From Minisyncoccota bacterium (lineage in GTDB: Bacteria > Patescibacteriota > Minisyncoccia > Phycocordibacterales > JBAYGS01): 21,804 nucleotides of DNA. The notes beneath the pieces were generated by a model. That model ran no database searches. It had not been told where the DNA came from and saw nothing but the letters and a program-made list of their open reading frames with translations. The translations under genes and the position numbers were made by a program. Positions 15,790 through 16,250 of the stretch are shown here, one piece after another. The stretch lies in assembly GCA_041666545.1 (NCBI GenBank), contig JBAYGS010000001.1:1-21804 (forward strand), given 5' to 3'. Numbering within the stretch: position 1 is the first letter of the stretch; each line of letters starts with the position of its first letter.

Positions 15790-16250
15790 GCTACGGAGAT
15801 ATTTTTTTGTCGCGACAAATGAAAATGGGCGGCTCGCAAGCGAGCCGCCCTATACGCAAAGGAGAGATTCTACCTTGCTGCACCTTAAGACGCCTGGGCC
15901 GAGTGAGAAACAACTTGTTTCCATCGGGTCGGGGCTAGACAGCAATGCAAGCTTCGGTCGCGAGTGAACCTTGTGGTGCCTCGCAGGTTATCACCTTAGC
16001 TATGCATCTGGGTGGACGACTTAATGCGGTTAGACGCTTAGCGTCTGGAGGCCGAAGAAAGCTGATCCGCGCTTGGAACGCGCGAGTCAATTATGTCTCC
16101 CTTTAGTCGGACGACAGCCAGCTCCAATCGGAGTCCGGTGATTGTCGGCCGGCGTTCAATATCTCTCTTTGGCAAGAATACACCCGTTGGAATTTCGTGC
16201 AAGGGACTTTTCCACTTTACCTGACTAAAGTGGAACGGGATAGACGGTTT
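15790..16250. ncRNA. ORF-free, GC-rich, hairpin-dense ~450-nt region that is a candidate structured ncRNA of undetermined strand and identity
   Basis: No plus-strand ORF of 60 aa or more lies between the DUF1761-like gene and the receiver gene. The only minus-strand ORF overlaps the receiver start and is not credible. Strong local hairpins are present: GGCGGCTCGC-aag-CGAGCCGCC at 15826-15850, GTTAGACGC-ttag-CGTCTGG, CGCGC-ttggaa-CGCGCG and CCGG-tgattgtcgg-CCGG. GC content is noticeably above its neighbours. Confidence 0.3.
16210..16239. repeat. Palindromic motif copy 2: TTCCACTTTA-cctgac-TAAAGTGGAACGGG
   Basis: 10-bp inverted arms share their sequence with 14065-14100 and 17749-17779. It lies about 50 nt upstream of the -35 of the receiver-gene promoter. 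Confidence 0.8.

Follow-up and report, generated by a model that had tools for sequence, protein, structure and literature searches.

The window analysed here, a stretch of 21,804 nt from a Minisyncoccota bacterium, is matched in a 341-kb metagenomic contig (ENA ERZ27249449, k141_82438), with near-identical copies in JGI and Logan assemblies. A spacer of 625 nt (15766–16390) separates a DUF1761-family gene (15316–15765, plus strand; Pfam) from a response-regulator gene (16391–16885, plus strand). The latter encodes a protein of 164 residues comprising a receiver domain only (Response_reg is its only Pfam match), is oriented divergently from the RNA element described below, and is the sole neighbour common to both lineages in which that element is found (the window and contig L005). 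No gene was called within the spacer in the source contig and its short ORFs lack Pfam matches, in agreement with an earlier note which had singled out 15790–16250 as an ORF-free, hairpin-dense candidate structured RNA.

The three hairpins pointed out in the earlier note are present: GGGCGGCTCGC-AAG-… at 15827–15850, AGACGC-TTA-GCGTCT at 16032–16046 and CGCGC-TTGGAAC-GCGCG at 16068–16084, the last corresponding to helix P3 of the model presented here. Contrary to the earlier note, no record for non-coding length is set here within the window, since 1208–2072 (865 nt) contains no ORF of more than 84 amino acids. The description of the region as conspicuously GC-richer than its neighbours is generous; there is a moderate excess (the window as a whole has 47.3% GC, compared with 52.5% in 15790–16250 and 54.7% in the RNA), and several coding 300-nt segments of the stretch reach 55–58% GC, above the spacer. 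The proposed extent also requires trimming, the functional unit being 15817–16202, whilst the 16207–16250 end is part of a separate repeated palindrome.

Close relatives of the response regulator are few; only two close clusters were found among 5.8 billion protein clusters, the second being P0002 (64% identical), which is encoded on a 2.1-kb contig (L005). An nhmmer comparison aligns window positions 15817–16203 with positions 624–1007 of L005 (E 1.5e-41), the overall identity of the two elements being 69%; the copy on a further contig, L063, is identical to that on L005. Ahead of the element, L005 has a gene for a SAM-dependent methyltransferase where the window has a DUF1761 gene, and a different gene also follows the response regulator. 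The outer flanks thus differ on both sides, and nothing but the element and the response-regulator gene stays linked in both lineages.

Similarity between the window and L005 begins at the A-run beside the G+C hairpin and ends 1–2 nt past TTGCAC (window) or TTGCCA (L005). On the minus strand, the two limits of the conserved DNA coincide exactly with the −35 box of a sigma-70-type promoter and with a terminator U-tract, and the flanks beyond both points are unalignable. The −35-like hexamer TTGCAC (16197–16202, minus strand), which aligns with TTGCCA of L005, marks the upstream limit of the unit; the −10-like hexamer TATTCT (16175–16180, minus strand) follows after 16 nt, at a position conserved in L005, where it reads TATTAT. 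The L005 promoter was called by the scan (TTGCCA-16-TATTAT; 10 of 12 positions; minus strand, 1006–979). The window hexamers are weak (3/6 for TTGCAC and 4/6 for TATTCT), fall below the scan threshold and were not called. At the other limit, an intrinsic terminator (15817–15850, minus strand) consists of a G+C stem of 10 bp capped by a CUUG loop, with AUUUUCAUUU behind it; it was called by the scan at 15850–15827 with the tract ATTTTCATTT, and its L005 counterpart at 656–634 (minus strand) as GGGCGGCTCGCTGCGAGCCGCCC followed by TTTTTCTTTT. The terminator stem is 100% identical in the two sequences and the U-tract is kept, whereas the other hairpins have diverged. An independent sRNA or ncRNA gene would be expected to combine a promoter and a Rho-independent terminator on the same strand with a conserved body between them, and the element shows this arrangement. 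The predicted minus-strand transcript would begin at about 16169 and end at about 15817 (about 353 nt), both ends being predictions.

Within the spacer of the RNA promoter (window 16183–16196; L005 987–1007) the heptamer GAAATTC is conserved; in L005 it extends to a 13-nt palindrome, CCAGAAATTCTGG, that abuts the −35 box. This is a possible repressor site.

The span 15800–16260 folds better than dinucleotide shuffles of itself on either strand (z −3.9 minus, −3.6 plus), with a folding z of −2.7 for the trimmed RNA. A common model was derived from the minimum-energy fold of the L005 sequence alone, which recovers P1, P2, P3, P4, P5, P6 and P9, together with manual comparison of the two sequences. 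According to this two-sequence model, the RNA body (15860–16169, minus strand; about 310 nt) is closed by helix P1, which pairs 16169–16161 with 15868–15860. Inside it are P2, a long hairpin with the invariant cap GACUCC-GAUK-GGAGC; a three-way junction in which P5 encloses P3 and P4; and a further three-way junction in which P6 encloses the hairpins P6a and P6b. P7, P8 and P9 are placed after the P6 domain and before the terminator, all helices being read on the minus strand. The two junction domains together form a core (15935–16107, minus strand), within which hairpin P3 (16063–16089, minus strand; 10 pairs, 7-nt loop) is the best co-varying helix, with eight of its ten pairs doubly changed yet still paired. 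Invariant blocks of 19–33 nt stand between the helices; the longest conserved block (15977–16009, minus strand; GCAGGTTATCACCTTAGCTATGYATCTGGGTGG in plus-strand reading) has 33 nt with one transition, and covers hairpin P6a together with one strand each of P5 (3′) and P6 (5′). A plus-strand helix proposed by RNAalifold (UCUACCU/GGGUGGA) was dropped, as it is invariant and in competition with P5, a helix that shows a compensatory change.

The manual model contains 93 pairs, ten of them in the terminator stem. Of the 93, 69 are the same in the window and L005, 14 are doubly changed and kept, three are singly changed and kept, and seven are broken in one of the sequences. Control models, in which the 3′ partners were slid by 1–3 positions, gave 0–3 double changes compared with the 14 in 93. 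MAFFT misaligns P3 by one column, even when the sequences are padded with N, and L005 was instead aligned to R1, a covariance model based on the window core only (15935–16107, minus strand). R1 finds L005 at 750–920 (131 bits, E 6.6e-33) and reproduces the manual alignment; 12 of 52 pairs are doubly changed and paired, with 95.2% of cells paired, none of 500 shuffles being as good and slid controls again giving 0–3. When RNAalifold is applied to the structural alignment, z relative to column shuffles is −7.3 (minus) and −7.6 (plus), with a structure conservation index of 0.69. Compensatory substitutions thus exceed the controls, in two sequences. These counts are suggestive and not statistically robust, because only two sequences exist and the model was derived from the same two; the figures show that the model is consistent and are not an independent test of it. 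With this limit, the view that the region is a structured RNA, put forward in the earlier note with identity and strand left open, is supported by a diverged homologue in which the helices are kept through compensatory changes.

Within the searches made, the element is known from two lineages only, as two distinct sequences. A metagenome scan with the conserved 19-mer CACCTTAGCTATGNATCTG returned one true match (L063) and four chance matches, and an R1 search of another 580 kb gave nothing credible. In 54 loci around DUF1761 orthologues from other Patescibacteria genomes, nhmmer, blastn and the covariance model found no homologue of the RNA, and these loci share no synteny with the window beyond the DUF1761 gene itself. 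Four pattern scans of viral contigs gave chance matches only, and BLAST against phages and plasmids gave no match to the element. One further orthologue of the response regulator was found among 1.8 billion representative proteins (P0005; 55% identical, 127 residues); its contig, L068, has a spacer of 208 nt from which the RNA element is absent. The tie between the RNA and the response regulator is therefore not general, because a locus with a 55%-identical orthologue lacks the RNA.

The minus strand is very likely the transcribed one. This assignment is made mainly because promoter and terminator are conserved on that strand; read on the plus strand, the G+C hairpin lacks a U-tract, in both lineages, and no conserved promoter lies ahead of it. 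The pairing pattern points the same way: read as minus, the model has eight G·U cells against two A·C cells (binomial P about 0.055), 96.2% of its cells are paired compared with 93.0% when read as plus, and the window hairpin P9 needs two G·U pairs that plus-strand reading would turn into A·C mismatches. Thermodynamics leaves the strands unseparated, with consensus energies of −77.9 (plus) and −71.3 (minus). The plus strand thus folds as well as the minus or slightly better, and together with the joint retention of the element and the response-regulator gene this would fit a plus-strand cis-regulatory leader, that is, a riboswitch-like or protein-binding 5′ UTR controlling that gene. We consider a leader of this kind unlikely. 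Besides the minus-strand signals and the G·U excess, a conserved TG-extended −10 belonging to the response-regulator gene itself (TGATATAAAT) sits downstream of the element; in L005 a 180-nt insertion containing a 20-bp perfect palindrome lies between the −35 box of the element and the regulator promoter region; the genes upstream of the element, where a plus-strand promoter would have to be conserved, differ between the lineages (DUF1761 protein or methyltransferase); and the orthologous regulator gene of L068 does without the element. Alternatively, the DNA itself could be what is maintained, as the remnant of a non-autonomous mobile element, an attachment site or a cluster of protein-binding sites, with hairpins that are incidental or act as DNA. 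Consistent with this, the pair of RNA and regulator stands between different outer neighbours in the two lineages, a repeated palindrome adjoins the element, and the minus-strand terminators that flank the pair (15827–15850 and 16957–16979) share the core TGGGCGGCT. The locus nonetheless has no terminal inverted or direct repeats of note and no transposase or integrase gene nearby, the element has no match in phage, plasmid or viral collections, and the compensatory changes preserve pairing, in some cases through G·U, which points to selection on an RNA fold. A purely DNA-level explanation is accordingly very improbable.

The earlier note had also allowed for a decayed gene, and this can be regarded as effectively refuted. 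ORFs of 40–53 amino acids do exist, as does a minus-strand ORF of 150 amino acids overlapping the start of the response-regulator gene, yet Pfam gives no match for any of them, even with E up to 1; substitutions between the window and L005 fall evenly on all three codon phases (42/32/42), with no three-base periodicity; the indels (1, 1, 1, 1, 2, 2, 2, 3, 6 and 10 nt) are mostly not multiples of three, those of 1 and 2 nt inside the conserved core leaving no ORF shared with L005; and the helices co-vary. A small ORF carried on the RNA was likewise rejected, the candidate (51 codons from TTG on the minus strand, after AAAGGGAG) stopping after 10 codons in L005. A divergent copy of a known RNA missed by Rfam (RNase P RNA, tmRNA, 6S RNA, a group I intron, OLE, ROOL, GOLLD, raiA or omega RNA) would account for a layout of about 350 nt and many helices closed by P1, and Patescibacteria do carry unusual RNAs, including group I introns overlooked by standard annotation (PMC13011429). 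Against this, cmscan with Rfam 15 over the whole window at gathering score found only tRNA-Gln, and assigned no family to either strand of the region; for 15600–16500, with permissive filters and E up to 10, it returned only sub-threshold sbrA, BsrF and L20 leader, driven by the terminator hairpin. The failure of the earlier note to find tmRNA or RNase P signatures is also borne out. ARAGORN reports only tRNA-Gln at 5049, no GGTTCGAATCC-like T-loop site occurs in the region (with 2–3 mismatches allowed in the motif searches), and neither a tRNA-like domain nor a tag frame is present. Neither type A nor type B RNase P RNA gives a covariance-model match on either strand, and the P4-strand patterns (CR-I, GAGGAAAGUCC…; CR-V, ACAGAA..CGGCUUA), with three mismatches allowed, are absent from 15790–16250 and at chance level elsewhere. 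A group I intron was rejected in view of no RF00028 match at E up to 10 and no tRNA halves or interrupted gene; both flanking genes are complete and lie on the strand opposite the RNA. The related idea of a tRNA split by such an intron, suggested by PMC13011429, was dropped, the D-arm-like sequence being the repeated palindrome and no T-arm or acceptor pairing being found. An omega, bridge or retron-type guide RNA was rejected as well, with no IscB, TnpB, IS110-recombinase or reverse-transcriptase gene among the window ORFs (Pfam, NCBIfam). An essential RNA would moreover be expected to be widespread, and two lineages only were found. It is thus hardly likely that the element belongs to one of these families.

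Several other features of the surrounding DNA were observed. The palindrome GTTCCACTTTA-N6-TAAAGTGGAACGGG occurs in three intergenic copies in the window (14066–14099, 16207–16241 and 17745–17780), and its core, ACTTTA-N6-TAAAGT, is upstream of the response-regulator promoter in three of three lineages (at about 1190–1222 in L005 and about 955–980 in L068). A dimeric DNA-binding protein may use it as an operator, or it may be a REP-like hairpin; it goes with the regulator promoter and not with the RNA, because 180 nt separate it from the RNA promoter in L005. That insertion (L005 1008–1190) comprises the 20-bp inverted repeat (CTTCACATACAATTTTCTAACG / CGTTAGAAAATTGTATGTGAAG) and the tandem repeats GGGGCAGAGAT and AAAATACCAAGGCT, each present twice, and may be a small inserted element.

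The long ORF-poor stretch elsewhere in the window also holds signals. A near-consensus plus-strand promoter (TTGACA-16-TATACT with an upstream TG; 11 of 12 positions) at 1502–1529 is followed by about 270 nt folding at z −3.8 and then by the hairpin GAGGTGGACCGCAAGGCCCACCTC with TTTTTCTTTT (about 1801–1835). This segment (1502–1835) has no Rfam match at E up to 1, its sole ORF being one of 84 amino acids on the other strand, and is a possible second non-coding RNA gene. The same stretch (1208–2072) contains terminator-like hairpins at about 1349–1385 (seen by eye and not listed by the scan) and at 1992–2030, as well as a possible ORF of 14 codons (ATGACCGAAAAT…TGA, near 1880) behind AAGGGGG.

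The two regulators encoded beside the RNA (in the window, residues 125–164, encoded by 16763–16885; and P0002) have a C-terminal tail of about 40 amino acids that is acidic and rich in alanine and valine. The tail is absent from P0005, from the lineage without the RNA, although this comparison covers three proteins only and is anecdotal.

Taken together, window 16202 to 15817, read on the minus strand, is probably a stand-alone gene encoding a structured non-coding RNA of about 350 nt. The element appears to be real and probably represents a new structured-RNA family of narrow distribution; for two sequences the evidence is good, though thin in absolute terms. Transcription would start near 16169 and end near 15817, and the RNA would fold into a multi-junction body closed by P1, followed by the terminator hairpin. 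Selection likely acts on a defined three-dimensional fold and not on antisense pairing to a target mRNA, because the stems drift freely while long blocks close to the junctions stay frozen. The RNA would then most likely act in trans, presumably as a scaffold for binding a protein or ligand.

The response-regulator gene is best regarded as context, and any part for it in the function of the RNA is speculative. A functional association of the RNA with the adjacent CheY-like regulator is suggested, tentatively and at low likelihood, because the pair is co-retained in different contexts and the acidic tail occurs only in the RNA-bearing lineages (three genomes being compared). In a stronger and rather unlikely form of this idea, an undescribed large RNA family of a small Paceibacterota branch would form a two-gene module with the acidic-tailed regulator and work with it, for instance as its binding partner or output. 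Were this so, the RNA would be a component of a two-component signalling pathway in a bacterium with a reduced genome. Bacteria of the candidate phyla radiation have tiny genomes and few recognised regulatory RNAs, and where strong purifying selection maintains an RNA of about 350 nt in a genome of that size, the RNA presumably repays its cost. If real, the element would add a structured-RNA family to a phylum whose non-coding RNAs are poorly catalogued, and a link of a large RNA with a minimal two-component regulator would become open to test; being narrowly distributed, and with a function that is inferred only, it is of limited immediate importance.

Comparison with known systems helps to place the candidate. 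RNase P RNA and tmRNA are alike in length (about 350 nt), in a terminal helix that pairs the 5′ and 3′ ends and in a body of many helices, whereas the element has no covariance-model match to them and lacks CR-I/CR-V, a tRNA-like domain and a tag frame. Group I introns of similar size are common in Patescibacteria and are sometimes missed by annotation (PMC13011429), and resemble the element as structured RNAs of comparable size. They differ from it in that the element has no RF00028 match and no host gene or exon halves, and appears to have its own promoter and terminator. raiA, OLE, ROOL and GOLLD are orphan large structured bacterial non-coding RNAs that were found as long GC-rich spacers. 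The element shares no sequence or structure match with these, and differs in its restriction to two lineages and its Paceibacterota host, but is like them in being a stand-alone unit of several hundred nucleotides, with GC above that of the genome, a multi-junction architecture, and co-varying stems combined with invariant junction blocks. Small RNAs of the EutX/Rli55 type sequester a response regulator; they contain an AdoCbl riboswitch, and the regulator they bind has an ANTAR domain. The element differs in having no riboswitch match and a neighbouring regulator that consists of a receiver domain and an acidic tail only. By analogy, EutX and Rli55 are nonetheless comparable as independently transcribed structured RNAs located beside two-component genes, and would provide a precedent for an RNA that acts on a response regulator.
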